This document shows, piece after piece, positions 41,179 to 64,000 of a stretch of DNA of 64,000 bases; within the stretch, counting starts at the first letter, position 1; each line of letters opens with the position of its first letter. Source of the stretch: Pseudomonadota bacterium (GTDB taxonomy: Bacteria; Pseudomonadota; Alphaproteobacteria; Dongiales; Dongiaceae). The notes under the pieces are model-generated. The model made no database searches, was not told the DNA's origin, and saw nothing but the letters and a program-made list of their open reading frames with translations. A program made the translations under genes and the position numbers. The DNA lies in contig JAJYUT010000002.1 in NCBI GenBank assembly GCA_021792365.1, forward strand, positions 452,313 to 516,312. Direction: 5' to 3'.

Positions 41179-41351
41179 GACCTCGTCCCCGGAGGCACTG
41201 CTCCCGGCGTACAAACCAAATTGGCGCCATCGACTGGCCTTTCCCCGGCAAAGTCGGGCGCAACCCAAGCAATCCTAGCCACTTCGGCAGGGTTTCTCAA
41301 GGAACGGGTTATGTCGCCACCAATCCGGCGGCAGTCCGCCGGTTCAACGCG

Positions 41352-42722: not shown

Positions 42723-42730
42723 CAGCACGT

Positions 42731-43381: not shown

Positions 43382-43638
43382 TTTCAAAATCCGCCCTCTC
43401 CGCTGAGGTCCTTCAACCCGCTGCCGCGATTGGTCTTGCCGCCAATTCCCGCCGCCTGTCCAATGACGATTCCGGGAACGGTTATAGCTGCCGGGCTGCC
43501 CGAACTCAACGCGGCGTGCCGCCGCCCACGGCCGATGCGGGTCGGGTTGCGCGTGCTTGACCGCCTCATCCGCCCGCCCTATACGTGCCTCGCCAAATAC
43601 GGCCGCCCCCTCGGGACCCTCCTGATCCGGCCGCTTCC

Positions 43639-43712
43639 GGCCCGGTGGCAGAGTGGCCATGCAGAGGACTGCAAATCCTCGTACGTCGGTTCGATTCCGG
43701 CCCGGGCCTCCA
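43639..43712 (+). tRNA. tRNA-Cys (GCA)
   Basis: 74 nt GGCCCGG...CCGGGCC-T-CCA acceptor stem, D arm GCAGAGTGGCCATGC, anticodon arm GAGGA-CTGCAAA-TCCTC and T loop GGTTCGATTCC. Confidence 0.96.
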
Positions 43713-43763
43713 AAGTCCATTCCTTCGGCGAGACCCCGCGGCGAGCGGCGTGTGACGCAGCAA

Positions 43764-45032: not shown

Positions 45033-45175
45033 GATCGGAGCTCAGCAGGCCAAAACTCGTGGTGACGCTAACGGCATCGCGTCCGACGGCAACGCACTTG
45101 CAAATCATGCAAAAACCGCGCGTGACGAGCACGCGCGGTTTGCTGTCGAAAACGCTTGGCGCGGTGCGGGTCGGC

Positions 45176-46585
45176 TCAGCCGCCCTCGCCCGGCGCGGTG
45201 GTCTCGAACTCCGCCTCGCCCGGCGTCGCTTCGGTCGGGAAGGCGACGCCCAGCGCCTGCACCAGCTCGCCCTGCGCGGCGAGGATGCGGTAGTTGGCGA
45301 ACATCTCCTCGTAGGAGGCGGTGATCAGGTCGTTGCGCGACAGGAAGAGCTCGTTGGTCGCGTCCAGCAAGTCGAGCAGGCTGCGCTGGCCGATGTCGAA
45401 CTGCTGCGCGTAGACGTCGCGCGTGTTCTGGTTGGCCTCGACCTGGTCGGTCAGGGTCTCGATGGCGTCCCGCTGCGTCTCGCGCGCGCTCCACGACAGG
45501 CGGATATCCTCCGCTACCGCGCGCTCCTGGACGCGGAGCTCCTCCTGCGCTTCGGCCTTGCGCCACTTGAACTCGCGCACCCGCGCGAGGTCCGCGCCGC
45601 CGCGATAGAGATTGTAGCGCGCGACCAGCAGGAACGTCGCGTTGTAGGTGGTGTTCTCGAGGCCGTTATTGTGGCGGTTGTTGTTGCCGATGACCTCCAG
45701 GTCGAGACGCGGATAGAGCGGCGCGGCCTCCTTGTCGATTTCGGCATCGGCGACGCGCACGTCGGCCTGCGCCAGCAGCACCTTCGGGTTGGTGGTCAGG
45801 CCGCGCGCCACCGATTCCTCCTCCGACGGCGCGATCATCGAGCCGTCCAACGTCACCGGCTCCAGCTCCTGCGGCTCGACGCCGATCACCCTCTGGAATA
45901 CGGCGCGGGCATCGCGCAGGTCGCCTTGGATCTCGTTGAGCGCGGTGCGGGCGGTCGCCAGGCGCGCTTCCGCCTGACGGACGTCGGCCACGTTGCCGCC
46001 GCCAAGCTCGGAGCGACGCTGAACGAGGCCCAGCGTCGCCTCGTGGGCGCGGACGTTCTCCTCCGCGTTCTGCACGCGTTCGGTGTGGCGCAGCACGTCA
46101 AGGTAGGACTGGGTGGCGTCGAGCGCCGTGACATGGCCCTGGTCCTGGATTCGGTGGCCGGCGGAGGCCAAGCGCTGCTTCTGCCGCTCGACTTCGGAAT
46201 CGGTCTCGAAGCCGTCGAAGATCCGCTGCTGCAGCGTGATCTGGGCGTCGCGGCGGCCATAGAGCCAGCGGCCCTTGTCATGGATGCCCTGATTGGTCTC
46301 CGCGCTGCCGCGGTCCGTGGTCTCGTTTTCGGAGAACTCGATCCCAGCATCCAGGCGGATGTCGATCTGCGGATAATAAAGCGCCCGCGCCTGCCGCAAT
46401 TCAAAGTCGATCGCACGGCGGTTTTTGACCGTCACGCCCACTTCAGGATTGGTGGCGATCACCAAACCCACCGCGTCCTGGAGCGACATCGCGAACGACG
46501 GCCCCGCAAAACCCGCTACACCCGTCAACAGCGCCGTGCCAAGCAGCAGCGCAGTACGACGAAGCGACAAAGCTCGCATCTTCAT
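45176..46585 (-). CDS. T1SS outer membrane channel (TolC/LapE-like)
   Basis: Signal peptide, MSLQDAVGLVIATNPEV, QRIFDGFET and QQFDIGQRSLLDLLDATNELF; adjacent to hlyD. Confidence 0.92.
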   Translation of the reverse strand: MKMRALSLRRTALLLGTALLTGVAGFAGPSFAMSLQDAVGLVIATNPEVGVTVKNRRAIDFELRQARALYYPQIDIRLDAGIEFSENETTDRGSAETNQGIHDKGRWLYGRRDAQITLQQRIFDGFETDSEVERQKQRLASAGHRIQDQGHVTALDATQSYLDVLRHTERVQNAEENVRAHEATLGLVQRRSELGGGNVADVRQAEARLATARTALNEIQGDLRDARAVFQRVIGVEPQELEPVTLDGSMIAPSEEESVARGLTTNPKVLLAQADVRVADAEIDKEAAPLYPRLDLEVIGNNNRHNNGLENTTYNATFLLVARYNLYRGGADLARVREFKWRKAEAQEELRVQERAVAEDIRLSWSARETQRDAIETLTDQVEANQNTRDVYAQQFDIGQRSLLDLLDATNELFLSRNDLITASYEEMFANYRILAAQGELVQALGVAFPTEATPGEAEFETTAPGEGG

Positions 46586-46723
46586 GGTTATCCCCCAAAT
46601 GCAGACAAATTGGCTGCGGCCCCCGAGGACCCTCTGCAGCGATCTAACTGTTTCGGAACCCTATACTAAGATTGTGTCCCTTTGATTGTAGTACCAGATT
46701 TACCATTCCCCCGCACCTGTTTT

Positions 46724-48052
46724 TTAACGCTCGGACAGGGCGGTATCCCTCGCTTTCAGGATCGGCTTCAACAGGTATGCTAGGACCGTTTTCTTTCCCG
46801 TTAAGATATCCACGGTCGCGGTCATGCCGGGAATGATCTGGAGTTCGTTGCCCTCCTTGCCGGTCAGGTAGTTTCGATCGGTGCGCAGGCGCACCCGGAA
46901 GAACAGCTCCTTCTTCTCGTTTTCGATGGCATCTGCGCTGATCTGCTCGACCTTCGCATCCAGGCCGCCATAGATGCTGTAGTCATAAGCCGTGATCTTG
47001 ATCTTGGCGTCCTGGTCTGGGGCGATGAAGCCGCGGTCCTGCGGCCGGATCTGCGCCTCGATCAGCAGGGTGTCCTCGATTGGGACGATCTCCATCAGCT
47101 GCTCGGCGGGCTGCAGCACGGCGCCCAGGGTGTGGAACTTGATCTGCTTCACCGTGCCGTAGACCGGCGAGCGCAGGCTCTGCTCGCTGCCCTGCTCCAC
47201 CGCCCCGTACAGCAGGGCGGCGACCGAGGCCAGCTCCGCGCGGTGCTGGTTCATCTGCTGCGCGGCCTCGGCGCGGAAGGTGGCGTCGATCTCCTTGAGC
47301 TTGGCTTGCACCTCGGCCAGGGCGGCGCGGGCCGGCGGCCGCGAGGCCTCGGCATTGGAGATCTCGGACTGGTATTGCTGCACTTCCTGCTGGGCCCGCA
47401 GCAGGTCGACCTTGGAGGCGATGTTGTTCAGCACCATCGGCTCCAGGATGTTCACCTGCTGCTGCGCGATGTTCAGGCTCTTGCGCGCGGTCGAGACCTT
47501 GGTGTCGATCTGGCGCAGCTCCGATTCCTTGGTCTCGATCTGCTGGTGGAGCGTCGCGCGCTGCGACTGAACCTGCTGCTGGCGGATGATGAAGACCGAT
47601 TTCTCGGTCTCGACCACTTCCGGCGCCTCGGCGATCAGGTCGGCCGGGAAGATGATCTCCGACGGGTCGCTCTTGCCGGCGATCTCCGCCTGGAGGCGCG
47701 CCAGGGCCGCCGAGGACGTCCATTTGCGCTGGCGCAGCTCCGCCTCGTTGGTTTCCAGCTCGGTGTTGTCGAGCACGGCAACCACCTGCCCGGCCTCGAC
47801 GATGTCGCCTTCGCGCACGTTGAGCTGCTTGATCTTGCCGCCCTTGACGCTCTGGATCACCTGGGTCTGGCTGGACGGGATGACCTTGCCCTCGCCGCGC
47901 GTGATCTCGTCCAGCACCGCGTAGTTCGCCCACACCAGGCCGATCACGACGATAGCGACCAGCGTGACCAGCAGCAGGTGGCCGAACAGCTTGGTGCCTT
48001 CGCGCTCCGTCTCGGAGGGGTCGATCCACAGATCCCGGTTGGTCAGCGACAT
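46724..48052 (-). CDS. T1SS periplasmic adaptor (HlyD/LapC-like)
   Basis: One TM, EITRGEGKVIP, coiled coil, LRSPVYGTV, KIKITAYDYSIYGGL and IIPGMTATVDILTGKKTVLAYLLKP. Confidence 0.94.
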   Translation of the reverse strand: MSLTNRDLWIDPSETEREGTKLFGHLLLVTLVAIVVIGLVWANYAVLDEITRGEGKVIPSSQTQVIQSVKGGKIKQLNVREGDIVEAGQVVAVLDNTELETNEAELRQRKWTSSAALARLQAEIAGKSDPSEIIFPADLIAEAPEVVETEKSVFIIRQQQVQSQRATLHQQIETKESELRQIDTKVSTARKSLNIAQQQVNILEPMVLNNIASKVDLLRAQQEVQQYQSEISNAEASRPPARAALAEVQAKLKEIDATFRAEAAQQMNQHRAELASVAALLYGAVEQGSEQSLRSPVYGTVKQIKFHTLGAVLQPAEQLMEIVPIEDTLLIEAQIRPQDRGFIAPDQDAKIKITAYDYSIYGGLDAKVEQISADAIENEKKELFFRVRLRTDRNYLTGKEGNELQIIPGMTATVDILTGKKTVLAYLLKPILKARDTALSER

Positions 48053-48056
48053 ACCC

Positions 48057-50840
48057 CTACTCCCTGGCCTGGACGCGCCCGCCCATCAGGGCCTCGAGCA
48101 CGCCCGATTTCGGACCGTCAGCCACCACCTTGCCACGGTCCAGCACGATCAGCCGGTCGACCAGCGCCAGCATGGAATGCCGGTGCGTCACCAGGATGAT
48201 GGTCTTGCCGCGCGCGATGGTGGCGAGGCGCTGCTTGAAGGCGGCCTCGGTGCTGTTGTCCATGGAGCTGGTCGGCTCGTCGAACACCATGATCTGCGGG
48301 TTGAGCAGCAAGGCGCGTGCGACCGCCACCGACTGCCGCTGCCCGCCGGAGAGCATGCGGCCGTTCTCGCCCACCGGCATGTCGTAGCCGAGCGGATGCT
48401 GCCGCACGAACTGGTCGACGCCGGAAAGCGTCGCGGCGCGGATCACCGACGCCTCGTCCACATAGGGCGCGCCCAGCGTGATGTTGTCCTTCACCGAGCC
48501 GTAGAACAGGTGCGGGTCCTGCAGCACGCAGCCGATGTTCTGCCTGAGGTCGGTCGGGTCGAGCTGGCGGATGTCCGTGCCGTCCACCAGCACCGCGCCT
48601 TCGGTCGGCTCGTAGAGTCCGAGGATCAGGCGCTCGATGGTGGTCTTGCCCGAGCCGATGCGGCCGAGGATGCCGACCCGCTCGCCCGGCTGGACCCGGA
48701 ACGAGACGCCGTCCAGCGCCGCCGTCTGCGCGCTCGGATACTTGAAGGTGACGTTGCGGAACTCGATCGCGCCCTCGATCCGCGGGCGGCGGATGAAGAC
48801 CTTGCCGCGCGGCCGCTCGACCGGCAGCTCCATCAGCTTGTTGAGCCCCTTGAGCGAGGTGAAGGACTGGTGGAAGCGAATGATGAGGCCGGCGATCTGG
48901 CCAAGCGGCGCCATGGCGCGGCCGGTCAGCATCGAGGCGGCGATCAGCGCGCCGGTCGTCATGTAGATGTCGCTCTCGGGACCGGTCGCGAAGATCCGGT
49001 AGCAGCCCCAGACGATGACGCCTGTGGTCGCGAGGTTGCTGGCCAGCATCACGAAATTGATGCCGAGGGTCGACCAGCGCTTCGAGGTCTCCGACGATGC
49101 TGACGAGGCCGCGACATAGCCGTCCCAGTTGCGCTGCATCTGGCCCTCGGCCGAGGTGGCCTTGATCATGTCGAGGCCGTTGATCGCCTCGACCAGGGTG
49201 GCGTGCTTCTGCGAGGTCTCGCGGTAGGAGCGCTCTACCGCCTTGCTCATCGGGAACTGCACCAGGATGCTGACAATGATCACGATCGGGATCAGCACGG
49301 CGGGCACGGTCACCACCGGCCCGGCGATGAGGAAGATGATGACCAGGAAGATCAGGATGAACGGCAGGTCGATCAGCGCCGACAGGCTGGCCGAGGTGAA
49401 GAAGTCGCGCAGCGTCTCGTATTGCTGCACGTTGCTGGCGAAGGCGCCGGAGGATTGCGGGCCGGCCGCCATCTTGATCGACAGGATATGCTCGAAGATC
49501 GCCGAGGAAACCTTGCGGTCCAGCGCCTTGCCCGCCTTGTCCAGGAACACCGCGCGCATGGTGCGCAGGGCGAAGTCGAACAGGTAGATGAGCAGCACGC
49601 CGAGCGCCAGCACCCACAGCGTCTCCTGCGCCTTGTTCGGCACCACGCGGTCATAGACCTGCATGGCGAAGATCGAGGAGGCGATGGTGAAGAGGTTCAT
49701 CAGCAGCGCCGCCACCACGACCTCGACATAGATCGGGGTGTGGCGCATCACCTCGCCCCAGAACCAGTTGCGCTCGCGCGCTTCGGTCATTTCCGAGGAG
49801 CGGCTGTCGAGCCGGATCTTGGGCCGGACCACCAGCATGGTCCCGGTGTACTGCTCCTCGATCTCGGAGACCGGCGCGGTCACGATGCCGTCGAGATTGT
49901 CGGTGGTCGCGATGTCGATCTTGCCGCCCTTGACGGGCGCGAGCATCACGACTGCCTGGTGATCCTTCAGCAGCAGCACGGCGGGCAGGTTGATCGACTT
50001 GGTCTCCGCGAGGGTGCGGCGCACCTTGCTGGCCGCGAGACCGGCATTCTCCGCCGCGCGCACGAACAGGTCCGGCGTCATGCCGGCTTCGCCGATCGGC
50101 AGGCCGGCGGCCAGCGCCGCCAGCGATTTCGGATTCCCGAACAGGCGAGTCAGGATGACGAGGCAGGACAGCAGCGCATCGGACCGCATCTCCACGTCGC
50201 TCAGTTCCGGCAGTCCGGCCTCCGCCGCCATGGCGGGGACATTGGACGCGGCCGGCGTGGGCCGGCCCGCCTGGATACCCGTTGCCTGCATGCCGGTCCC
50301 CTGGACGCCGGCAGGCTGGGCCGCAGGCTGGGCCGCAGGCTGGGCGGCAGGTTGGGCAACAGGTTGGGCGGCAGGTTGGGCGGCCGGCCGAGCGGTGGCT
50401 GACGGCGCGCCCGCGGTTATGTGGGACTGGCCGGAAAGCGGCTGACCGGCAGAGGGTTGCCCAGCCGGTTGCCCAGTAGGTTGCCGGGCGGCGCCCGGCG
50501 CGGGCTGCGCGGCCGGTTGCGCGGGATTGAGGCGGGCGCCCTGGGTGATGGCCGTCTGGAAAGCGTTGTGCGCAGCGTTTGCCGTGGAGGCGGCGGCAAT
50601 GGGCGCAGCGGCAATGGGCGCAGCGGCAATGGGCGCGGCGGCAATGGGTGCGGCCGCAATGGGGGCAGTGGCGCCGGGTGCAGTGGCATTGATCGCCGCC
50701 GGTGCGGGCCCGGCATTCGGCACGACGAACATCGGATCGGCGCGCCGGGCGGCCGCGGTGTCACCCGTCTTGGCGGCGGCCGGGCCGGAATCGTTGGCCG
50801 TAGGCTTGGGTGTGCCCGGCGAGGGCTTGGCGGCGTCCAT
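48057..50840 (-). CDS. T1SS permease/ATPase (LapB/LssB-like) with about 210-aa low-complexity N-terminal extension
   Basis: C39-like domain (DALLSCL...LPAVLLL), MQVYDRVVPN, Walker A GRIGSGKT, LSGGQRQ and VFDEPTSSMD. Confidence 0.94.
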   Translation of the reverse strand: MDAAKPSPGTPKPTANDSGPAAAKTGDTAAARRADPMFVVPNAGPAPAAINATAPGATAPIAAAPIAAAPIAAAPIAAAPIAAASTANAAHNAFQTAITQGARLNPAQPAAQPAPGAARQPTGQPAGQPSAGQPLSGQSHITAGAPSATARPAAQPAAQPVAQPAAQPAAQPAAQPAGVQGTGMQATGIQAGRPTPAASNVPAMAAEAGLPELSDVEMRSDALLSCLVILTRLFGNPKSLAALAAGLPIGEAGMTPDLFVRAAENAGLAASKVRRTLAETKSINLPAVLLLKDHQAVVMLAPVKGGKIDIATTDNLDGIVTAPVSEIEEQYTGTMLVVRPKIRLDSRSSEMTEARERNWFWGEVMRHTPIYVEVVVAALLMNLFTIASSIFAMQVYDRVVPNKAQETLWVLALGVLLIYLFDFALRTMRAVFLDKAGKALDRKVSSAIFEHILSIKMAAGPQSSGAFASNVQQYETLRDFFTSASLSALIDLPFILIFLVIIFLIAGPVVTVPAVLIPIVIIVSILVQFPMSKAVERSYRETSQKHATLVEAINGLDMIKATSAEGQMQRNWDGYVAASSASSETSKRWSTLGINFVMLASNLATTGVIVWGCYRIFATGPESDIYMTTGALIAASMLTGRAMAPLGQIAGLIIRFHQSFTSLKGLNKLMELPVERPRGKVFIRRPRIEGAIEFRNVTFKYPSAQTAALDGVSFRVQPGERVGILGRIGSGKTTIERLILGLYEPTEGAVLVDGTDIRQLDPTDLRQNIGCVLQDPHLFYGSVKDNITLGAPYVDEASVIRAATLSGVDQFVRQHPLGYDMPVGENGRMLSGGQRQSVAVARALLLNPQIMVFDEPTSSMDNSTEAAFKQRLATIARGKTIILVTHRHSMLALVDRLIVLDRGKVVADGPKSGVLEALMGGRVQARE
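50311..50382 (-). repeat. Six tandem 12-bp coding repeats (AQPA/AQPV) in the T1SS ATPase extension
   Basis: Units of GCAGG(C/T)TGGGC(C/G/A) read directly on the + strand. Confidence 0.85.
50593..50667 (-). repeat. Five tandem 15-bp coding repeats (APIAA) in the T1SS ATPase extension
   Basis: Units of GCGGCAATGGGCGCA with few substitutions. Confidence 0.88.
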
Positions 50841-50891
50841 GGTACCTTCGATCCGGCTTCCTGCAGTCGCGTGTACTACTGCATTGTTAAG

Positions 50892-50907
50892 GTTATGGTT
50901 TCGTTAA
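50892..50907 (-). promoter_or_regulatory. CtrA-like box upstream of the T1SS ATPase
   Basis: Minus strand TTAA-CGAAACC-ATAAC versus consensus TTAA-N7-TTAAC (one mismatch), in an AT-rich patch about 50 bp upstream of the ATG. Confidence 0.35.
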
Positions 50908-51105
50908 GACGTGGCCTGCCTTGCGCGCCGGCACGCAGCCCGGCACCCAAGCATTTATGTCCCGACCGATCCGCGCAAGCCCTCTGCCCATAGCCATCAG
51001 TATAGCAGCGTGCCGCCCCGTTCAGCGACGCCGCGCACGTTTACCCGAAATTTGTTGCCAGCGCCGCACTTTACGCCGGCACAGATATTCACGTCTCCGC
51101 TGCAA

Positions 51106-52671
51106 TCATGACTCGACCGCGATAACCCCCAGGCGGTGCAGGATCGGCACCTCGTCCGACCAGAACCTGTCGAAGAATTGCGCAGCCCGACCCGGGTCGT
51201 CGAGCGGTTTTTCTTCCTTTGCCGGCTTGCTGAAGCGGATGCGCCGGCGCTTCACCTCGCTCAGCAGCCGCTCCTTGAGCTCGCTCTTGTCCTTCCACGG
51301 CTGGCTGCAGAGGGACAGGATCACCGCGAAAACCGGATCGATGCCGATAGCATTGCCCGCGACGGTTGAGACCACCTGCCCGGGGGCCAGGCTGTCGGCC
51401 ACGCGCTTCACCAGAGCGCGGTTGACGGCGAGCGGAATGCGGATCTGCCTGGGGTCGGCGGGGATCGGCGCCGGCCTGCCGGCGCCGGCACAGGGCACGA
51501 CGATGCCGGTGGCGGCCATCAGCGTCATAGTGCGCTCCACGTCGACATTGGCCAGCTTGCGCGCCGCGACCTCCTTGCGCAAATCGGCGATCGACCAGGC
51601 GCCCTGCCCCAGCAGTTCCTTGAAGGCGGGAAAGGCCTGCTCGTCGAACTTCACCTCGCCGCGCGCCACCTTGGCCATGTTGTTGAGGCTCTTGAGGTCG
51701 CGCGCGCTGCCGAACACCTGGCTGTCCATGTTGCGGGCGATCGCGGCCCGGGCGAGCTGCGCATGGCCGCGCACGAACACGTCGCGGCGGAAGCGCTGGT
51801 TCTGCGCCAAATCCTGGAAAAGCTGGCGCAGGCGCGCGCTCGGCTGGGCCTTCACCTTGGCCTGGAGGTCGTCGCCGCCCAGCAGCTCGAGGTGGTTCTC
51901 CGCCAGGGTGGCGGACCCGGCGAAGGTGAGCTTGGCGTTCGCCATCTCGTCCGCCACCTCGCTGCTGTAGAACGGCGTCCAATGCTCGTTCAGGAACTCG
52001 TGGGCGAGGTAGTTGGCGTTGCGCTCCGCCATCTTGGCGGCCATCTTGCCGGCGCTCGGCGCGGCGGCGAAATAGGCGAACTTGGCGCCGACCAGCTCCT
52101 CCACCGACTTGAGCGCGGCGGTGGTGCGCTGGGTCGCGTCGCCCGGCAGGTGGCGCGCCGTCTCGTAGACCAGCTTCTGCAGCGGACCGTCGGCAGCCCA
52201 GCCGGGCAGGCAATTGTAGCTGTTGTAGACGAGGCCCCCGGGCTTCAGCCGCTCGCGGATGATGCGCTGGATGCCGGCGCGCACCTCCGCGCTGACCCAG
52301 GCGTAGACGCCGTGCAGCACGATGAAATCGCATTCCGGCACTTCCTGCGCCGTGAGGTCGAGAAAGCTGCGCTCCAGGAACTCGATATTGCCGATGCCGG
52401 CCGCCCCGGCATAGCGCCGCGCCCAGTCGATATGCGCGGGATTGAAATCGACGCCGAAGAAGCGCCCCTGCGGATGCGCGCCGGCCAGCAGCGTGACCGT
52501 CTGCCCCAGGCCGCAGCCGAGCTCCAGGTAGGTGAAGCCGGGCTCGAGCGGCCGCGGCTGGCAGCCGTTCAGCACCGCGACATAGTTCAGCCAGGCCGGC
52601 GACAGCTCGCGGAAGAAATGCTCGGTGTAGAGGACTTCGGTGACGTAGCCCTGTGACCAGTCGGAGTCCAT
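51106..52671 (-). CDS. Class I SAM-dependent methyltransferase with methyltransferase-regulatory domain (rickettsial PKMT-like)
   Basis: LELGCGLG motif I, GVDFN, DFIVLHGVYAWV, GLVYNSYNCLPGW, YLAHEFLNEHWTPFY and NQRFRRDV; GGGGGA RBS. Confidence 0.85.
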   Translation of the reverse strand: MDSDWSQGYVTEVLYTEHFFRELSPAWLNYVAVLNGCQPRPLEPGFTYLELGCGLGQTVTLLAGAHPQGRFFGVDFNPAHIDWARRYAGAAGIGNIEFLERSFLDLTAQEVPECDFIVLHGVYAWVSAEVRAGIQRIIRERLKPGGLVYNSYNCLPGWAADGPLQKLVYETARHLPGDATQRTTAALKSVEELVGAKFAYFAAAPSAGKMAAKMAERNANYLAHEFLNEHWTPFYSSEVADEMANAKLTFAGSATLAENHLELLGGDDLQAKVKAQPSARLRQLFQDLAQNQRFRRDVFVRGHAQLARAAIARNMDSQVFGSARDLKSLNNMAKVARGEVKFDEQAFPAFKELLGQGAWSIADLRKEVAARKLANVDVERTMTLMAATGIVVPCAGAGRPAPIPADPRQIRIPLAVNRALVKRVADSLAPGQVVSTVAGNAIGIDPVFAVILSLCSQPWKDKSELKERLLSEVKRRRIRFSKPAKEEKPLDDPGRAAQFFDRFWSDEVPILHRLGVIAVES

Positions 52672-52746
52672 GCTTCCCCCAATGGGCGGCGGCGTTTATT
52701 GCCCTGTTCGCCACAGCCCCGCACCACCCACAGCCCGTCGGCGGCG

Positions 52747-52761
52747 GCATGGTTAATGCCA
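52747..52761 (-). promoter_or_regulatory. Candidate sigma54 -24/-12 promoter that also contains a TTAACCAT (CtrA-type) motif
   Basis: Minus strand TGGCATTAACCATGC with GG/GC at canonical spacing, about 75 bp upstream of the methyltransferase ATG. Confidence 0.38.
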
Positions 52762-52849
52762 CGGATTGGCGCGCGCGGTCAAAGCCCATCCTGCCCGCAA
52801 AGCCTGAACATTGCTTAAGCGCGCCCGGCTAATCCCCGGATTTTCGGGC

Positions 52850-52875
52850 AAAAAGAAGGGCGCCCGAAGGCGCCC
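52850..52875 (-). terminator. Rho-independent terminator after the adhesin gene
   Basis: GGGCGCC-TTCG-GGCGCCC stem-loop followed by TTCTTTTT on the minus strand; a second GC hairpin lies at about 52907-52938. Confidence 0.7.
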
Positions 52876-52955
52876 CGATCTCTTCCCCAAGAGAAACTCG
52901 AGAAGTGGGAGGGCGCCCCGTGGGGTGAGGCGCCTCCCGTCAACGTGCTTCTGTC

Positions 52956-55900: not shown

Positions 55901-58900
55901 TCTCGATTGAGCCGTCGAGCACGTTGCCTTCGTTCAGCGTCCCGACCGTGCCGGCCAGCGTGGCGGACAGGTCGTTGAAGTCGTCGACCATGATGACCGT
56001 GTTCGGCGGGCCGTCGTTTCCGTCCGGATCGGCCACATCGTTCAGGTGCTGGTTATTCGCACCGTTCGGAATGGCCGTCCCGAGGCCGACCGAGTAGACA
56101 TGCTCGATCGGATTATTCTCGAGCAGTTCGTCCCAGTCCTCCCGCGTACCCTCGGTGATCCGGTTGCCCGAACCGCCGCCGGTGGTCGGCTCGCCGTCCG
56201 ACAGGAAGTAGACGAGATTGTCGTGCGTGCCAAAGTCGCCGCGCCCGTCGGTATCCTCGAAGCCGTCGATCGCATCCTGGATCGCCGCTTCATAGTTGGT
56301 GAAGCCATTGCTCTGCGGGATGTCGTCGATCGCGTCGATGGCAGCCTGCAGGCTGAGCCAGGTCGGCTCACGATCGGAGCCGGAGTTGAAGGTGACCAGC
56401 ATCACCCGAACGTCGCCGCCGGTTGCGGCATAGGCGTTGAGCATGTTGATCGCCGCCTGCTTCGCCGCTTCTAGCTTGCTGACGCCCGGGATACCCGACG
56501 GATCATTCATCGAGCCCGAGTTGTCGAACACCAGCAGCAGGTTGACGTTCTTCGGAGCCGCCTCGTCGCCGCACTTCTTGTCGTCGTAGGCGACGGGGAT
56601 CAGGTTATCGAGGCTCTGCACCTCCGCCTTGGCCTCCACGCTCTGCGAGTTGTTGTCCGGGTCGCACTCCTGGTCGGACGGTTTCTCCACCGCCGTTGCC
56701 GTCGCGGTGAAGTCGGCGGTCGTGCCTGAGGGGGCGCCGACATTCTTGATCTCGATCTGCAGATCGCTGATCGAGCCGACGCCGTCGACCCCGTCGCCGT
56801 CCTTGCTGTCGATTTTCAAGATCAGCGTCGTCGCGGTCGAGCTCGGATCCTTCACCACGCCGGCAGGCAGCGAGCTCAGGAAATTGCCCGTGAACTCAAA
56901 GCCGGCAGGCGCCGTAATCGTGACCTGGTGCGCTTCCGACCCGTCCTTGAAGTCGTCAAAAGTCGCATCCAAGGTCAGTGTGCCGAGCTCGTTGGTGCTG
57001 AACTTATCGCCAACATCGTCGCTGTCGGCGGCCGTGATCGTCACGCTGAGCACGCTGGGATCACCATCGCCGCCGTTGGCATCGTCCTTGCCATCCGCCA
57101 CGGCATCGACCTGCACGAAGGCGTCGTCGTTGGCGGTGTCTTTCAGGCTCGGGTCGAAGTTGCTCTCCGATTCGACCACCGCAGTCACCGTGCCGAGATC
57201 GACGTCGCTGTCCGCCGGCGGAATGACAGTGAAGCTGCCGGCAAAGTCAGTGGTCGTCGCATTGTCGAACAAGATGGTGAGCTTGCCGTCCGCCCCGATC
57301 GTGTCCGTGACGCTGGTATTGGCCTGGTCGAGGCCGGTCCAGACGATCGTGAAGCCGGCCACGCTTGGCGGGAACGTGATCACGATGCTCGTCAGGTGCG
57401 AGCCATCCGTCGTGCTCGCCGTGACGGGGATCGACACGCCCTCGGAATCCTCGGGCACGCAGACCGGATCGGCGTTGGCGCCGAGGGTCACGCTCGCTTC
57501 CGGCGGGTTGCTCTTGCCGTCGATCTTGATCGTCAGCGTGGAGGAGGCCTTGTCGTCGTCGCCGTCCTTGACGGTGTAGTTGAAGACCTCCTGCAGCTGC
57601 TGGCCGGTCTCGAGATCCTTCACCGCCTGCTTGCTCTCATCCAGCACGTATTCGTAGTCGCCGTTGGCGCTCACATAGAGCGTGCCGTAGAGACCCTGGA
57701 TCACGCCGTTGCTGTCGATGTTGCCGTTCTCCGCCGTGTCTTTCCAGGAGATGCTGCCGAACTTGTCGCTGCCCATGGAATCGGCGGTGCCGTCCGTGCC
57801 GTTCGCGTCGGGATCGACCGCCACGTCCACGCCCGTCACCACGTTGCCGGTGGCGATGGTCGGGCCGCCTTCCTTGACGCTGTCGCAATCGGCGTTGGCC
57901 GTCGGCCCGTCATCCTCGAACTTGATGATCTTGCCAAGGTCAACGCTCTTGGTGGCGGTATCGCCGTCGCCATCCGTCACGGTCATCTGCAGCAGCAGCT
58001 TGTTGCTGCCGGTGATGACCGCGGCCGAAGCGCCAGACTCGTCGTGGTCGTTCGAGTTGTTGTGCTCGACCGCGCGGTACTGGTGCACGGTCACGCTGCC
58101 GTCGGCGGCCACGATGATCTTGAACACCAGCTCGTTGGAGCCGGCGGTGCGGCCTTCGATCACGCCACCATTGTTCACCAGGTTCACGGCCTGGTTGCTC
58201 TGCGTGTCGACCAGTCCGGTATTGGCGTTGCCGATGGCCAGCGCGAAGGTCTTGGAATTGGCGCCCGCCGCGCCGTCGGTGCCGAAGTCCACGCTCGCGG
58301 AGAACAGGTTGTTGGCGCTGATGGTTACGTAGCCGATGTCGTCCAGGTCACCCGGCGAATCCGCCTCGTCATCCGAGTTGCCGGTCCCGCCTACTGTCTC
58401 GTCGAGAACCAGGGAGACGTTCTTGAGCTTGAACTCCTGGATCTTCGGGCCGTCATCCTCGAACTTGATGATCGAGCCGAGGTCGACGCAGTCGCTGGCG
58501 CTGTCGTTGTCGCCGTCGGTGACGGTGACATTCAGTAGCACCTTGCCCGGATCCATGATCTCCGGCGAGTTCGACTCGTCGTGGTCGTTCGGGTTGTCGT
58601 GCTCCACCGCGCGCTTCTGGTGGACCGTCACCTCGCCGCTGTCGTCGTCAACCGAGATCGTGAACGCCAGCTCGCCGCCAGCGTTGCCCACGCGGCCTTC
58701 GATCACACCGCTGCCATTCAGCACCAGGACGATCGGCTGGTCGGTCACGGCGTCCACCAGGCCGGACGGCGTGCCGTTGCCGCCGGGGATGGAGAGCGCG
58801 AATACCTTCGCGTTGCTGTCCGCCGCGCCGTCCGTGCCGAAATCGGTGAACTCGCTGAACAGCAGGAAGGCCGGCACCTTGGCGTAGCCGATATCGCCGG

Positions 58901-61900
58901 GAGCACCGGCCCAATCGTCCAGCTCGTTCAGATCGCCCAGGTCGATGTCCCAGATGCTGCCAGCGACCGATTCGTCGAGCACGATCTTCGCGCCGTGGTG
59001 CAGGTTGAGATCGGTCGTCGGCCCGTCATCGTCGAACGAGATGCCGCAGCCGATGTCGACGGTCTCACTGTCCTTGTCGTTGTCGTTGTCGGTGGCGGTA
59101 GCCTTGACGCCGAGGATGCCATCGCCCAGGAACAGCACCTCGTCATGCGCGCCGGGCGCCGGCTCGGTGCCGCCGTGATCGACGGCGCGGTACTGGACGG
59201 AGACGATGTCGCCGCTGTCCTGGTCGAGCCACACCGCGAACACCAGGTGGCCCTCGCCGTCCACGCCGTAGACCACGCCCGAGGGCGCCTGGCACAGCGT
59301 GACCGGCGTGCCGGTCTTGGTGTCGATGAGGTTGGTCTGCTCGCACAGGATCTTGAGCTCGTAGCAGGCCGAGCCGCCATCGGCGCCGAAATTCACCTTG
59401 AACAGCTTCTCGACGTTGTCCGCGGAGGCGCCGATCGGCAGCGGCACGAAGACCGGCAGGCCGTTCAGGGCAGCCTTGATCACATCGGCCGCGTTGTCGA
59501 TCACGTCGCCCTCGACGGTCGAGCCGTCGGCGGGCGTGTTGTTCGGGTGGTTGAGGTCGTCGTAGTCCTGCTGGCTGAGGCTGAGGGACTCGTCCATCGC
59601 GAGGTTCAGCTTCGCGCCGTGGCACTCCTCCACCTTCGGCGTGTCGTCGTCGACAGAGATCTTGATCTTGCCTTCGGCGGAGTCGCCGTCGCCGTCGTAG
59701 CCGTTGACCTTGAACTCGAACTTGAAGTTGTCCTCGTACTTGGTCTCCGTCTGGCTCTTGCCGTCGTCCTGGAACGGATGCTCCAGCGGCTTGTGCAGGC
59801 AGAACTCGAACGCGCCCACGTTGCTGCCGGCGGTGTCGAGGGTGAAGGTGAAGACCTTCTCGTTGCCGTTGATGTAGGCGGTCCAGGTCACCACGCCGGT
59901 GCCGGCGTCGGGCCCGGACTTCACGAAGGTGAGCGCCTCGCCGTCGATGGCGTAGAGGCCGCTGCCACCGACGACCGGGTTGCCCTGGGCGTCGAAGGAG
60001 AGCGTGAGGACAGTGTTCTGGGCCGCGTCCTTGACGGTCAGCTCGCAGATCTCGAGATGGCCCGGCTTGTCGCTGCCGAAGTCGAACTTGATCTTGCCCG
60101 AGGTCTTGGTGTCGCCGCCATCGTCGCCGGGGCCGCCCGGGATGCCTTCCGGCAGCTTGTCCTCGTCGATGTCATCGCTTTCGTTGCGATCCCAATCCAC
60201 CTTCTCGAACACCGGCCCGTCATCTTCGAAGGAGATGCCCTTGCCGATGTCGACGGTCTTGCAGTCGGAGTCGCCGTCCTTGTCCGTCGCGGTCACGGTG
60301 ACGCCGAGCAGGCCGCTGTCGAGGCAGGCCACCTCGTCATGCGCGCCGGGCTTGCCTTCCTCGTCGCCGTGATCGATGGCGCGGAACTGCGCCATGACGA
60401 GCTTGCCGCTGTCCGCGTCGATCCAGATCGCGAACACCACCTCGTTGCCGGCCATGCCCTTCACGATGTCGCCGTGCTTGACCAGCGTGATGCACGCGCC
60501 GGTCTCGGTGTCCCTGAGGTTGGTCTTGCCGTCGCCGCACAGGATGGTCAGGTCGTAGCAGACCGAGCAGCCCTTGTCGGAGCCGAAGTCGATCTTGAAC
60601 AGCTTCTCGGCATTGTCGTGCGCGAAGCCGATCAGGTCCGGGACGTTGCCCGGGAAGATCGCGTCGAAGATGTCGACCACCAGGCTGAGCGGATACTCGT
60701 CGTTCTCGGCCGCCGGGCCGTCCTGCTTGCCGTTCGGCTCGTCGCGGTCGTCGTCACGCGGGAAGATGTCGAGGAAGTGCTTGGCCGTGCTCTCGTCCAC
60801 CGCCAGATTGACCTCGCAGTCGGTGGCGCAGATCACCGGGCCGTCATCCTCGAAGGAGATGCCCTTGCTGATGTCGACGGTCTTCGAGTCCTTGTCGCCG
60901 TCCTTGTCGTAGGCGGTCGCGGTGACGCCGAGCGTGCAATCGTCGAGGAACTTCACCTCGTCATGCGCACCCTTGCCGCCTTCCTCGTCGCCATGATCGA
61001 TCGCGCGGTACTGGGCCGTGACGATCTTGCCGCTGTCGTGGTCGAGCCAGACCGCGAACACCAGGTTGCCGCAGCCGTCGCGGCCCTCCACGATGCCGTA
61101 CTGGTTGGTGCACAGCGTGATGCAGGTGCCGGTTTCGGTGTCGGTGAGGCTGGTGTTGCTGTTGAGGATGGTGAGCTCGTAGCAGATCACGCAGCCCTTG
61201 TCGGTGCCGAAATCCACCTTGAACAGCTTGGCCACGTTGTCCGCGGCCGCGCCGATCGGCGGCGGGCAGGTTTCCAGCCCCGAGCACTCCACCGCGATCT
61301 TGTTCAGGACCTCGTCGTTCTCCGGCGTCCAGCCGTCCTTGATGCCCCAGAAGCCGTGCTGGTTCTGGTCGTACGGACGGTGGCCATGGCCCTCCGACTC
61401 GTCCATCGCCAGGGTCAGCTTGCAGTCGGTGCCGCACACGGTCGGGCCGTCATCCTGGAACACGATGGAGGGATTGCCGTCGCAGCCGTCGAGCGGCTGG
61501 CGCGCGATCACTGCGTCGCCGTCGGCGTCGGTCACCTTCACCTGCAGGTAGATGAGGGCGTTGTCCGCGCAGTCCAGCAGCGTCAGGGATTCGTCGCTGT
61601 CGCAGCCGTCCGGGTGCTTGATGGCGCGGTACTGCGCCAGCTCCAGGTTGCCGGAGTCCGACACGTGCAGCGCGAAGCTGATCGGGCCGTCCTTGCCGCC
61701 GACGCGGCCGACCACGAAGGTCTCGCCGCATTCCTGCACCGTGTAGAGGAAGATCGGCAGGCCGCTCTTGGTGTCGGTGAGGTTGGTCTTCTCGCCGCAG
61801 AAATCCTTGCCGAAGCAGTTGACGATGCTGACCGGCGAAACCTTGCCGGGGCCATCAGCGCCGAAGGCCGCCTCGGGGTCGCTGCTGCCGCCGCTGAGGT

Positions 61901-64000
61901 CGATCTTCAGTTCGGTCTTGGCGTAGCCGATCGCGTCGACGCAGTGCAGCGCGTCCTCGAACTTGTCGAAGCTGTGGAGGTACCAGACATCGTCCTCCTT
62001 CTGCCCGGACGCGTCCGGGTCGTGGTCCCAGGGGAACCACTTGCCGCCGATCTGCTTGCCGGCGGTCTCGTCGTGGACCAGCTTGTTGTCCTCGTCGCAG
62101 AACGAGATCTCGACCTTGCAGGCGTCGGGGCTGTCGTCATCGACGCTCAGCTTCACGCTGCCGTCGGCATGGTCGCCGTCGACGTCGTAGCCGCGCACGG
62201 TGAAGTCGAACTTGAAGTTGTCTTCCCAGGCGCCCTTGCCGTTATCGTGGTTGTTGTCCCAGGGCTTGCCGTTGGTGTCCGGGTGCTCGAGCGGCTGGTG
62301 CAGGCAGAAATCGAACTTGCCGATGTTGTGCCCCTTGGTGTCGAGGCTGAAGGTGAAGACCTTCTCACCAGGGCAGCCCGCGATATAGGCCGTCCAACTC
62401 ACCACGCCGTTGGCGTCCGGGCCCGACTTTTCGAACGCGAGCGCCTTGTTGTCGATCGCGAACAGGCCCAGCCCGCCGACGACCGGGTGGCCTTCGGCGT
62501 TGAACGAGAGCGTGAGCACGGTCTTGCCCGCCGAGTCCTTGACCGTCAGGTCGCGGATCTCGAGATGGCCCGGCTGGTCGGTGCCGAAGTGGAACACCAC
62601 CTTGCCGTCGGCCTTGCGCCCGCCGTCATTGTCGCCCGGGCCGCCGTAATTGCCGTGGGGCAGCGCGTCCTCGTCGATCAAGCCAATGCCGAACAGGCTG
62701 TCGCAATCGTGGCCCCAATCGACCTCGCAGAACCTCGGCCCGTCATCCTCGATCCGCAGATCGACGTGCTGGATCGCATGGTCGCCGTCCTGGTCGGTGG
62801 CGCGGATATAGATGATCGGCTCGCCGTCAATGCCGACGATCGAGAACCCGTCGTCGTGCGCGCTCGGGAACGGGAAGAACGCGCCGTCGACGTCGTGGTT
62901 GATCTGGTGCAGCTGGAAGAAGCTGACCTGGCCGCCATCGTCGATGTTCAGCACGAACACCGCGGTCTCGCCGCCCGCGGCGTCGCCGTTGACGTCGACG
63001 TAGCCGACGACGGTCTGCGCATCGATCTGGCGCACCCAGACGGGCAGCACCGCGGGCTCCGCGCCGACGGCGCTCCAGGTGACCGTGGCGTTGGTCTGCC
63101 GGTCGGCGACAGTCAGGTGCGCGTCGGCCGTCGGGTAGCCGACCGTGCTCTCCTTGACCATGAAGAGCTCGAACGGATGCTCGTTCTCGCCGCTGCCGGA
63201 GAGCGCGCCATAGACCGAGTCGCGCGCCTTCGAGTTGTCCTTATCGAACTCCGTCGCGCCATCGGCGCCGAAGCTGACATGAGCCTGGGCAATGGCCGCG
63301 CCGATGGCACCGCCGAAGCTCTTGCCGTAGGGGACGTCGAAGCCGGCGTCCAGGATCTTGTCGCCCAAGTCGGCGCCGAGGTTGGAGACATAGGGATCGA
63401 AGATAGACACGTCATCGGAGAACGGCTGCTCGCCGAAGGTCTCGTCGTGGGTGATGTCGGCGTCCTTGAGGACGATCTGGAGGCCCTCGCCGCTGCCCTG
63501 GACCTCGCCGAAGAACGGGATGTCGTCGACCGCGCCGAGCGGCAGCACGCCGAAGCCCGAGGAGCCGTCGGAATCCGTGACCTTGAACTTCACCGGCAGG
63601 TCGAGGGTCTGCTCGTTCGCGCCGATCAGGCCTGCGGGCGCCTGGTTGTCGATGTTGTCGTGCAGCGTGAAGCTGACCTTGAACTCGCTCGGCGAGGTGT
63701 ACTCCTCGACGTGGATCTCAAACACCAGGCGCTCGGTGGCGTCGTCGTATTTGCCGTCCTTGTTGCTGTCGATGAAAGCGAAGATGCCGTTGCCATGCAC
63801 GCCGGGCACGGCGGGATTGATCGCGTAGCTGATCTTCTCGCCATCGGAGGTCAGCTTGCTCGGCAGCAGCGCGGGATCGACCGCGAGCTTGCCCGGAGCG
63901 TCGTCCTTGAAGTCGACGGTGATGAGCGCATAGGCGGTCGTGGGCTCGCGGTCGCCATCGGCGCCCTGGCCGTTCTCGTCCTTGTTGTCGAGGTCGCCAG
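52956..64000 (-). CDS. Giant T1SS-secreted RTX adhesin (DUF5801- and T1SS-143-like repeats, 2x VWA, Calx-beta, cadherin-like Ig, RTX repeats); 5' end outside window
   Basis: Frame is open from 63998 to the stop at 52956 (over 3,680 aa). Recurrent FEDDGP / DES / FGxDG / QYRAIxH / DxDGD repeats, two DNSGS MIDAS motifs, GGxGxD nonapeptides at about 53250-53420, and C-terminal DVISGF...DVIDL secretion-signal motif. Confidence 0.93.
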   Translation of the reverse strand, partial: GDLDNKDENGQGADGDREPTTAYALITVDFKDDAPGKLAVDPALLPSKLTSDGEKISYAINPAVPGVHGNGIFAFIDSNKDGKYDDATERLVFEIHVEEYTSPSEFKVSFTLHDNIDNQAPAGLIGANEQTLDLPVKFKVTDSDGSSGFGVLPLGAVDDIPFFGEVQGSGEGLQIVLKDADITHDETFGEQPFSDDVSIFDPYVSNLGADLGDKILDAGFDVPYGKSFGGAIGAAIAQAHVSFGADGATEFDKDNSKARDSVYGALSGSGENEHPFELFMVKESTVGYPTADAHLTVADRQTNATVTWSAVGAEPAVLPVWVRQIDAQTVVGYVDVNGDAAGGETAVFVLNIDDGGQVSFFQLHQINHDVDGAFFPFPSAHDDGFSIVGIDGEPIIYIRATDQDGDHAIQHVDLRIEDDGPRFCEVDWGHDCDSLFGIGLIDEDALPHGNYGGPGDNDGGRKADGKVVFHFGTDQPGHLEIRDLTVKDSAGKTVLTLSFNAEGHPVVGGLGLFAIDNKALAFEKSGPDANGVVSWTAYIAGCPGEKVFTFSLDTKGHNIGKFDFCLHQPLEHPDTNGKPWDNNHDNGKGAWEDNFKFDFTVRGYDVDGDHADGSVKLSVDDDSPDACKVEISFCDEDNKLVHDETAGKQIGGKWFPWDHDPDASGQKEDDVWYLHSFDKFEDALHCVDAIGYAKTELKIDLSGGSSDPEAAFGADGPGKVSPVSIVNCFGKDFCGEKTNLTDTKSGLPIFLYTVQECGETFVVGRVGGKDGPISFALHVSDSGNLELAQYRAIKHPDGCDSDESLTLLDCADNALIYLQVKVTDADGDAVIARQPLDGCDGNPSIVFQDDGPTVCGTDCKLTLAMDESEGHGHRPYDQNQHGFWGIKDGWTPENDEVLNKIAVECSGLETCPPPIGAAADNVAKLFKVDFGTDKGCVICYELTILNSNTSLTDTETGTCITLCTNQYGIVEGRDGCGNLVFAVWLDHDSGKIVTAQYRAIDHGDEEGGKGAHDEVKFLDDCTLGVTATAYDKDGDKDSKTVDISKGISFEDDGPVICATDCEVNLAVDESTAKHFLDIFPRDDDRDEPNGKQDGPAAENDEYPLSLVVDIFDAIFPGNVPDLIGFAHDNAEKLFKIDFGSDKGCSVCYDLTILCGDGKTNLRDTETGACITLVKHGDIVKGMAGNEVVFAIWIDADSGKLVMAQFRAIDHGDEEGKPGAHDEVACLDSGLLGVTVTATDKDGDSDCKTVDIGKGISFEDDGPVFEKVDWDRNESDDIDEDKLPEGIPGGPGDDGGDTKTSGKIKFDFGSDKPGHLEICELTVKDAAQNTVLTLSFDAQGNPVVGGSGLYAIDGEALTFVKSGPDAGTGVVTWTAYINGNEKVFTFTLDTAGSNVGAFEFCLHKPLEHPFQDDGKSQTETKYEDNFKFEFKVNGYDGDGDSAEGKIKISVDDDTPKVEECHGAKLNLAMDESLSLSQQDYDDLNHPNNTPADGSTVEGDVIDNAADVIKAALNGLPVFVPLPIGASADNVEKLFKVNFGADGGSACYELKILCEQTNLIDTKTGTPVTLCQAPSGVVYGVDGEGHLVFAVWLDQDSGDIVSVQYRAVDHGGTEPAPGAHDEVLFLGDGILGVKATATDNDNDKDSETVDIGCGISFDDDGPTTDLNLHHGAKIVLDESVAGSIWDIDLGDLNELDDWAGAPGDIGYAKVPAFLLFSEFTDFGTDGAADSNAKVFALSIPGGNGTPSGLVDAVTDQPIVLVLNGSGVIEGRVGNAGGELAFTISVDDDSGEVTVHQKRAVEHDNPNDHDESNSPEIMDPGKVLLNVTVTDGDNDSASDCVDLGSIIKFEDDGPKIQEFKLKNVSLVLDETVGGTGNSDDEADSPGDLDDIGYVTISANNLFSASVDFGTDGAAGANSKTFALAIGNANTGLVDTQSNQAVNLVNNGGVIEGRTAGSNELVFKIIVAADGSVTVHQYRAVEHNNSNDHDESGASAAVITGSNKLLLQMTVTDGDGDTATKSVDLGKIIKFEDDGPTANADCDSVKEGGPTIATGNVVTGVDVAVDPDANGTDGTADSMGSDKFGSISWKDTAENGNIDSNGVIQGLYGTLYVSANGDYEYVLDESKQAVKDLETGQQLQEVFNYTVKDGDDDKASSTLTIKIDGKSNPPEASVTLGANADPVCVPEDSEGVSIPVTASTTDGSHLTSIVITFPPSVAGFTIVWTGLDQANTSVTDTIGADGKLTILFDNATTTDFAGSFTVIPPADSDVDLGTVTAVVESESNFDPSLKDTANDDAFVQVDAVADGKDDANGGDGDPSVLSVTITAADSDDVGDKFSTNELGTLTLDATFDDFKDGSEAHQVTITAPAGFEFTGNFLSSLPAGVVKDPSSTATTLILKIDSKDGDGVDGVGSISDLQIEIKNVGAPSGTTADFTATATAVEKPSDQECDPDNNSQSVEAKAEVQSLDNLIPVAYDDKKCGDEAAPKNVNLLLVFDNSGSMNDPSGIPGVSKLEAAKQAAINMLNAYAATGGDVRVMLVTFNSGSDREPTWLSLQAAIDAIDDIPQSNGFTNYEAAIQDAIDGFEDTDGRGDFGTHDNLVYFLSDGEPTTGGGSGNRITEGTREDWDELLENNPIEHVYSVGLGTAIPNGANNQHLNDVADPDGNDGPPNTVIMVDDFNDLSATLAGTVGTLNEGNVLDGSIENDDSSPNGAVDGDGSAPTPGDADNVGDGFSHVSFFQYDHPTDNGLDITINWDGVGNVDPGEVSGGENTVINGTKVSFDTEHGRMTFDLSTGDYDFIAGAIDGGDKEEHFAYKITDDNGDQSNPADLTVCIKDVYVDKTPITYDDVASGSEPAPKNVNLLLVFDNSGSMNDPSGIPGVSKLEAAKQAAINMLNAYAATGGDVRVMLVTFNSGSDREPTWLSLQAAIDAIDDIPQSNGFTNYEAAIQDAIDGFEDTDGRGDFGTHDNLVYFLSDGEPTTGGGSGNRITEGTREDWDELLENNPIEHVYSVGLGTAIPNGANNQHLNDVADPDGNDGPPNTVILVDDFNDLSATLTGTIGEPIEGNILNGDNESDPDAPADKTPDNPGDGPAHLSYFEYDSANNDLDIKITWDGAGAVVIDGVANGKAAAINGKEVSFDTDHGRMTIDFSDGDFDFVPKNISGGDKTEVFDYKITDNDGDVSNTSQLKVTIENLPPVVSIDDTTVDEGSTSNLTVKLSEAVTTDTTFTVTFSKVGDTAGNGSDYTPTVVSVTVLAGATTASIPVNALPDGLVENDEQYSVVISGAPAGWTIADDTGTVTINDVVIRPSTNAVSGSGAEDAANIPVSLSGSDANGTVASFRIISLPANGTLYADAAHTIVIAANDTVLAVANAATLHFVPNPNFNGSPTFQYAAIDNHGLEDVTPATATITVTAVDDPTVANPDSIITAINDNSSFSVPHWALLANDSDADNALTISQITAFDGGSTFDDVTTGGGNVTVNTDSGFDPGDVGHFTYKAGNATAEVTVTAVSNGNITGTDDSEIIVDSDNSHIINAGKSNDIVFGNDGSDTINGGDGDDILDGGEGGDTYVGGAGNDTINVGDGHDTVRYTSALDGNDVISGFDASSNGGGQDVIDLNPLFDALGNPNEATRASRINIQTVGSDTVITVDAEGNGFGVGNDLRITVLGVTGLTMDDNNGDILYGNN
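54846..55450 (-). repeat. VWA-encoding 605-bp direct repeat, C-terminal copy
   Basis: Matches 55956-56560 (offset 1110 bp); three mismatches seen by eye. Confidence 0.9.
55956..56560 (-). repeat. VWA-encoding 605-bp direct repeat, N-terminal copy
   Basis: Matches 54846-55450; encodes NVNLLLVFDNSGS...FNDLSATL. Confidence 0.9.

Follow-up and report, generated by a model that had tools for sequence, protein, structure and literature searches.

The 64,000-nucleotide (nt) stretch of DNA analysed here (contig JAJYUT010000002.1 of assembly GCA_021792365.1, positions 452,313 to 516,312 of the forward strand; "the window" hereafter) raises the question of why a single methyltransferase gene lies between a giant RTX adhesin and the export genes of a type I secretion system (T1SS). 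The source genome is that of a Dongia-like alphaproteobacterium with a G+C content of 65%; among named homologues, Dongia deserti and Dongiaceae metagenome-assembled genomes (MAGs) come closest. The methyltransferase (MT) belongs to the family of outer-membrane protein lysine methyltransferases (OM PKMT) that comprises Rickettsia PKMT1 and PKMT2 and Acinetobacter KmtA; this membership is established. Methylation of the adhesin before export is considered probable because the PKMT gene sits between adhesin genes and pump and because the pairing recurs in many bacteria. We lean modestly towards an S-adenosylmethionine (SAM, AdoMet)-dependent cytoplasmic OM PKMT that was recruited as accessory of a LapB-type T1SS and most likely methylates many lysines of two tandem RTX adhesins before or during their export. 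Substrate, timing and physiological effect are those that we infer from family membership and gene context. The locus is encoded by the minus strand and is transcribed in the order RTX adhesin, terminator, MT, ATP-binding cassette (ABC) transporter, HlyD, TolC, preceded beyond the window by a second adhesin:

L112:1108-7443 (= G000:C21:517420-523755, beyond the window), minus strand: second RTX adhesin, ~2,110 amino acids (aa), tandem paralogue upstream of the first, from the sequence of L112.
52956..64000, minus strand: giant RTX adhesin, presumed substrate; its C-terminal 3,681 codons lie in the window and the gene extends 739 nt past the end (3,927 aa in total).
52857..52876, minus strand: intrinsic-terminator-like hairpin in the adhesin/MT gap, ~80 nt after the adhesin stop (pattern scan); 8-bp stem (7 G-C pairs) closed by a TTCG loop and followed by the T-rich tail TCTTTTTGCC.
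51106..52671, minus strand: OM PKMT-family protein-lysine methyltransferase, 521 aa, without signal peptide (Pfam, PDB, AlphaFold2/Foldseek).
50841..51105, minus strand: spacer of 265 nt between MT and ABC; no terminator predicted by the terminator scan.
48057..50840, minus strand: LssB/LapB-type T1SS ABC transporter, 927 aa, with C39-like domain (TIGR03375 and Pfam).
50196-50840, minus strand: Pro/Ala-rich N-terminal extension of the ABC protein, ~215 aa, ahead of the C39-like domain (protein-level conservation in orthologues).
46724..48052, minus strand: HlyD-family T1SS membrane-fusion protein, starting 4 nt after the ABC stop (TIGR01843).
45176..46585, minus strand: TolC-family T1SS outer-membrane protein (TIGR01844).
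45117..45135, minus strand: terminator-like hairpin after TolC (pattern scan), end of the presumed MT-ABC-HlyD-TolC unit.

The original prediction had presented the 521-aa MT, which is co-oriented, as the only gene between the adhesin and the ABC-HlyD-TolC genes, and its coordinates and gene order are confirmed. The MT frame shows the coding signature of the genome (GC by codon position 0.68/0.45/0.91). A 566-aa open reading frame (ORF) overlapping it was rejected as a gene, being an Arg/Ala-rich off-frame artefact, and MT is therefore the sole gene between adhesin and pump.

The regulatory domain PF10119 (MethyTransf_Reg), which in PKMT1/2 is the dimerization domain, matches residues 219-301 of MT over profile positions 2-84 of 84, with 82.2 bits for a cut-off of 25.5 (E 4.8e-23). 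No other gene of the genome carries it. The class I SAM domain is recognized by the Pfam models Methyltransf_25/12/31/11 (E 1e-9 to 1e-13), and its GxGxG motif by the sequence LELGCGLG at residues 49-56. Strong sequence matches in the PDB are restricted to rickettsial PKMT2 (4.9e-29) and PKMT1 (6.9e-25). The five MT motifs on which the original prediction relied are all present in the protein, and the PKMT1 motifs that it had named for comparison (LELGC, HGVISWV, YISYNTLPGW, YLRHDHLEE and NRRFR) can all be found in the HMMER alignment to 5dnk. With 56 homologues as input, AlphaFold2 gave a confident model (predicted local distance difference test 89.4; predicted template-modelling score 0.90) that recovers the full four-domain architecture of PKMT1/2 (AdoMet, dimerization, middle and C-terminal domains; about 520-550 aa). 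The top 8 Foldseek matches of this model in the PDB are all PKMT1/PKMT2 chains (E 1e-24 to 5e-22; template-modelling score 0.61-0.64; 532-540 columns), followed by the mycobacterial protein-lysine MT Rv2067c (1e-10). The comparison by hidden Markov models and structure that had been set beforehand as a check thus places the rickettsial enzymes first over all four domains. Small-molecule and glycan MTs come far behind, the small-molecule ones at 2.6e-8 or worse, 16 orders of magnitude after PKMT1/2.

The residues that contact the cofactor are also conserved. Asp102 and His146 of RpPKMT1 form hydrogen bonds with AdoMet (PMC11784438); they align with D75 and H120 of MT, of which D75 is invariant and H120 is found in at least 90% of the 56 homologues. 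The positions of RpPKMT1 L103 and I130, which matter for the recognition of OmpB and whose equivalents are not conserved in the KmtA-like cluster A (PMC11784438), are occupied in MT by Phe76 and Phe103. The cleft carries the motif RFRRDVFVRGH with the invariant basic residues R293, R295, R296 and R301. This motif and F76/F103 fit the description of cluster A, the comparison of subfamily A (KmtA-like) with subfamily R being one by description only. The lack of a signal peptide indicates a cytoplasmic enzyme, a location likewise argued for the rickettsial enzymes (PMC8232902). The Synechocystis methyltransferase of PMC7801250 is CpcM and belongs to a different family.

That MT modifies a small molecule or a glycan, or is inactive, and stands beside the pump by coincidence, is highly improbable. 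Such a reading can draw on the promiscuity of class I MT folds, on weak sub-threshold NCBIfam matches to arsenite, corrinoid and sugar MTs and on distant homologues found among glycosyltransferase or sulfotransferase genes. It is opposed by the full-length four-domain similarity, which is to PKMT1/2 only, by the conserved AdoMet residues and by the significant enrichment of T1SS/RTX neighbours described below. The glycosyltransferase neighbours elsewhere are TPR/GT41 proteins; since GT41 comprises protein O-linked N-acetylglucosamine transferases, they may be protein-modifying enzymes themselves.

A set of 401 alphaproteobacterial genomes, drawn evenly, served to investigate the gene context. 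PF10119 is present in 71 of them, and 80 PF10119 loci were taken. A locus was scored as linked when a T1SS ABC plus HlyD pair and/or an RTX ORF was found within 10 kb; 40 control windows, located 150-300 kb away on the same contigs, were scored by the same criteria. Linkage is found for 15 of the 80 loci versus one of the 40 controls (Fisher one-sided p = 0.009). The linked loci belong to at least nine families, several have a different ABC type, and Pfam confirmed all seven RTX ORFs checked, which come from six of them. On a combined tree of 160 sequences the linked state requires at least 11 changes and is absent, with one exception, from the divergent small-genome lineages, from which the window MT is far removed in the class-wide tree. 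The neighbourhood survey that the original prediction had called for gave a positive result: homologues are strongly linked to T1SS/RTX genes, recurrently and in several lineages.

Close and mid-distance relatives were studied in another 80 genome loci with 10-kb flanks, using tblastn with the window pump proteins and a scan for RTX motifs. MT is followed by ABC-HlyD(-TolC) in 28 of these loci, at MT identities of 34-85%; 26 have an LssB-type pump in the same order as in the window. The other two, from Burkholderiales (L094 and L098), combine MT with HlyD and a shorter PrtD-like ABC devoid of a C39 domain, with a divergent orientation in L094. A giant RTX ORF is found just upstream in 15 of the 28. 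At nine further loci the neighbour of MT is a giant RTX or RTX-motif ORF and no pump occurs within 10 kb; in eight of them MT is directly downstream of this ORF. Pfam supports these ORFs at L048, L049, L051, L099 and L100 (HemolysinCabind, VWA, cadherin, Calx-beta); the genes downstream at L048 are Mrp/hydrogenase genes. At the metagenomic homologue L128, a protein of 1,690 aa that contains 40 RTX stretches is encoded 3.4 kb from MT. The large ORF upstream of MT in L108 (Burkholderiaceae) has nine GGxGxD motifs and gave no Pfam match in three pieces, leaving its RTX status unconfirmed. In a maximum-likelihood tree of MT every evaluable member of the window subclade (MT identity down to 36%) adjoins a T1SS, a giant RTX protein or both. 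None of the 21 evaluable loci is linked in the sister clade of 34 members (Acidobacteriota, Gammaproteobacteria, Trinickia), where neighbours are heterogeneous. The position of MT beside the pump stays constant while the upstream cargo changes completely. The same locus is found in the cultured, non-pathogenic soil isolates Dongia deserti, D. soli and D. mobilis.

Some of the loci have features of their own. In the Burkholderiaceae MAG locus L098:1-10204 a sulfotransferase, an adenosine 5′-phosphosulfate kinase, the PKMT homologue, the PrtD-like ABC, HlyD, TolC and a TPR/GT41 glycosyltransferase are clustered; this has the look of a secretion locus that carries three modifying enzymes of different kinds. 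In L105:5747-17091, and also in L096 and L109 (Geobacteraceae/Desulfuromonadaceae), the PKMT homologue lies between a 1,411-aa FkbM-MT/MT/TPR/GT41 protein and a TPR/GT9 protein of ~1,900-2,270 aa; this setting, without T1SS, resembles one of protein glycosylation. The RTX/cadherin/Big_9 proteins directly upstream of the PKMT homologues in L099:7211-9913 and L100:3777-8072 also match Pfam T6SS_HCP (E 1e-11 and 6e-20), Hcp-like domains being unusual within an RTX repeat protein.

The pump of the window is assigned by TIGR03375 for the ABC protein (923.6 bits; cut-off 693), which also has Peptidase_C39 (34 bits), ABC_membrane and ABC_tran domains, by TIGR01843 for HlyD (382.9 bits; cut-off 208.65) and by TIGR01844 for TolC (286 bits; cut-off 225). 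Since a terminator is found upstream of MT and none is predicted downstream, MT probably heads its own transcription unit together with the pump, as far as sequence signals tell. The genes downstream of TolC on the same strand (window 37699-45032) code an MFS transporter, the protein-L-isoaspartate O-methyltransferase Pcm, a second TolC-family protein, a DUF2497 protein and ValS; the pcm-tolC-valS stretch is syntenic with the metagenomic Dongiaceae loci L127 and L130. The N-terminal extension of the ABC protein is composed in part of tandem repeats (AAPIA x5, AAQPA x6). Its GC content at third codon positions is ambiguous as a coding test (0.76 versus about 0.9), and the extension was taken as coding because of its protein-level conservation among orthologues, which keep the pattern MDAAKPS...QMFVVQKSGP...NAFQSAITQG.

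MT might methylate a component of the secretion machinery, for example this extension, and so regulate secretion rather than modify cargo. The ABC gene is the most constant neighbour of MT within Dongiaceae. A conserved N-terminal extension of 34-372 aa, Pro/Ala-rich and in some species Lys-rich, is found in the MT-linked ABC proteins; in L044/L050 it is rich in AKP/EAKPV lysine repeats, as it is in the Dongia sedimenti group, where it reaches 370 aa. Three orthologous ABC genes without MT have open frames of only 736-745 aa and no extension. However, the extension has only ~4 Lys in the window, it is not demonstrated for the PrtD-like pumps linked to MTs elsewhere, and MT-RTX pairs exist without a nearby pump. 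We know of no precedent, and we judge this role very unlikely.

The presumed cargo has the architecture expected for export by such a pump. The full-length first adhesin, obtained by joining the window with L112, has eight DUF5801 domains (E 4e-177), two VWA domains, Calx-beta, Cadherin_4, Big_9 and C-terminal RTX repeats. HemolysinCabind reaches 29 bits in it (cut-off 23) and also exceeds its cut-off in the tandem paralogue. No hydrophobic leader is seen at the N-terminus, which reads MATDSTILPTGEAH.... The second adhesin is built of four ~300-aa repeats, and its first ~190 aa differ very little from those of the first one and include two TAAG motifs (residues 34-37 and 129-132 of the first adhesin). 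The TAAG at residues 129-132 presumably resembles a LapG cleavage site. No NCBIfam or Pfam model, one for a LapA-type retention module included, matched the N-terminal 246 aa of the first adhesin. A LapG-family gene (Peptidase_C93) is present elsewhere in the genome (G000:C28:988162-988527), which fits regulated release of LapA-like adhesins. Both adhesins are very acidic, with 17-18% Asp+Glu; the composition of the first includes 12.7% Asp, 4.0% Lys and 1.3% Arg.

Several observations weigh against these adhesins being the substrate. A strong terminator is predicted between adhesin and MT; the original prediction had already pointed to it, and the pattern scan supports it at 52876..52857. The same prediction had stressed the many lysines of the adhesin repeats. 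Their absolute number is indeed high (157 in the first adhesin, with a maximum of 18 per 200 aa) but there is no enrichment, neither in the window adhesins (4.0% in the first, 1.7% in its tandem paralogue) nor in the MT-adjacent RTX proteins elsewhere (0.9-4.1%), and Lys-richness was therefore dropped as an argument. About 80% of the PF10119 genes class-wide are not linked to a T1SS. In the Dongiaceae loci L044-L046, L050, L127 and L130 MT and pump are present with no adhesin nearby; upstream, such loci have genes for an RHH/PAS regulator and a GGDEF-EAL protein. In this family synteny covers the entire block as far as pcm-tolC-valS, and part of the linkage thus reflects vertical inheritance. 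Orthologous pumps lacking MT occur in other Dongiaceae genera, in G019 with the RTX adhesin directly followed by ABC. That MT is required for the pump to work was consequently rejected, and MT is to be seen as an accessory rather than a pump component. G005, considered as a further MT-less case, is uninformative, since its contig stops 79 nt upstream of ABC. The work on Acinetobacter Tol 5 detected T1SS Bap proteins and reported hardly any methylation of outer-membrane proteins besides AtaA (PMC11784438).

Autotransporter beta-domains are encoded at no fewer than six loci of the genome, and classical autotransporters are the substrate class proven for the rickettsial PKMTs, which methylate one autotransporter together with several further outer-membrane proteins (PMC11784438, PMC8232902). 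MT could then be a genuine OM PKMT that acts on other envelope proteins, chiefly OmpB-like classical autotransporters or outer-membrane proteins generally, with its place beside the T1SS explained by shared regulation of surface functions or by inherited synteny, as the adhesin-less loci and the syntenic Dongiaceae block would allow. We consider this unlikely. No autotransporter gene is found near MT in the window. MT also immediately adjoins RTX proteins at loci without a nearby pump, and in unrelated families it accompanies T1SS of different types, a pattern that points to T1SS cargo.

If the adhesins are the substrate, the order of events is constrained by their export route. RTX proteins leave the cytoplasm through T1SS post-translationally and unfolded, so that a cytoplasmic PKMT can reach their lysines only before or during export. 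MT would act in the low-calcium cytoplasm, where the adhesins are not yet folded, multi-methylating the epsilon-amino groups of many lysines in both of them, and the methylated proteins would then be exported through ABC-HlyD-TolC. The invariant basic residues of the cleft motif (R293, R295, R296 and R301) may suit such acidic substrates. At the cell surface methyl-lysines might tune the chemistry of the adhesins and thereby adhesiveness, the amount displayed or protease sensitivity. A transcription unit shared by MT and pump would couple MT expression to secretion capacity.

Whether operon-encoded OM PKMTs are dedicated T1SS cargo-maturation enzymes in many Proteobacteria, doing with methyl-lysine on giant RTX adhesins in the unfolded state what HlyC-type enzymes do by acylation, is a matter on which our opinion is evenly divided. 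If true, lysine methylation would be a third general route of cargo modification for surface adhesins, autotransporters and trimeric autotransporters being the first two. A PKMT fixed in T1SS adhesin loci would extend it to the largest bacterial adhesin class (LapA/RTX type), T1SS would gain a second accessory enzyme that modifies cargo, the HlyC acyltransferases being the first, and an enzyme-substrate pair would be predicted from the genome alone. Our literature search retrieved no description of T1SS/RTX adhesin methylation or of PKMT genes in T1SS operons, in agreement with the original prediction, which knew of no lysine methylation of a T1SS adhesin. OmpB, the one surface precedent it named, is not the sole case, since according to a paper of 2024 KmtA multi-methylates AtaA (PMC11784438).

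The known lysine methylation of surface proteins is limited to OmpB of Rickettsia (PMC8232902) and AtaA of Acinetobacter (PMC11784438), two exported proteins that are multi-methylated by members of the PKMT family. Both are type V secretion substrates and gene linkage was not used as evidence for either pair. MT shares with Rickettsia PKMT1/PKMT2 (PDB 5DNK, 5DO0, 5DOO, 5DPL; "OM PKMT R") the four-domain fold, the combination of PF10119 with a class I MT domain, about the same size and the conserved AdoMet Asp/His. By analogy it may, like them, be a cytoplasmic multi-methylator of lysines on an exported surface protein. It is only ~19% identical to them in the structural alignment, its cleft motif is NQRFRRDVFVRGH while the rickettsial one is NRRFRTTLLCH, and Phe76/Phe103 stand in place of L103/I130 of RpPKMT1. 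The rickettsial substrate is a Sec-dependent autotransporter, whereas the MT gene sits in a T1SS adhesin locus. To our knowledge the rickettsial PKMT genes are not next to ompB.

KmtA of Acinetobacter sp. Tol 5 ("OM PKMT A"), whose target, the trimeric autotransporter adhesin AtaA, it methylates at more than 130 lysines (PMC11784438), is like MT an enzyme of this family from an environmental, non-pathogenic bacterium in which the equivalents of L103/I130 are not conserved. This target is a giant fibrous adhesin, and the role proposed for MT would likewise be an adjustment of adhesin display and adhesiveness. AtaA belongs to the type Vc substrates (Sec plus the beta-barrel assembly machinery) while the cargo next to MT is type I-secreted; no trimeric autotransporter was found in the genome of the window (PF03895 absent).

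The acyltransferases HlyC, CyaC and RtxC offer a likeness that is functional only: an operon-encoded cytoplasmic enzyme that modifies lysines in an RTX protein still unfolded and awaiting export by the T1SS. Their fold is unrelated, and they catalyse acylation of one or two specific lysines dependent on acyl carrier protein, compared with SAM-dependent methylation of probably many lysines here. Pfam scans revealed no HlyC-type acyltransferase domain in MT or in the other genes of the locus, and the cargo of HlyC-type enzymes is a pore-forming toxin, that of the window an adhesin. The secretion part of the locus resembles Pseudomonas LapA/LapBCE, with an LssB/LapB-type ABC transporter bearing a C39-like domain, HlyD, TolC and a giant repeat adhesin with C-terminal RTX repeats. 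The window differs from the described Lap system, which has no methyltransferase, by MT and by the extra Pro/Ala-rich N-terminal extension of its ABC protein.

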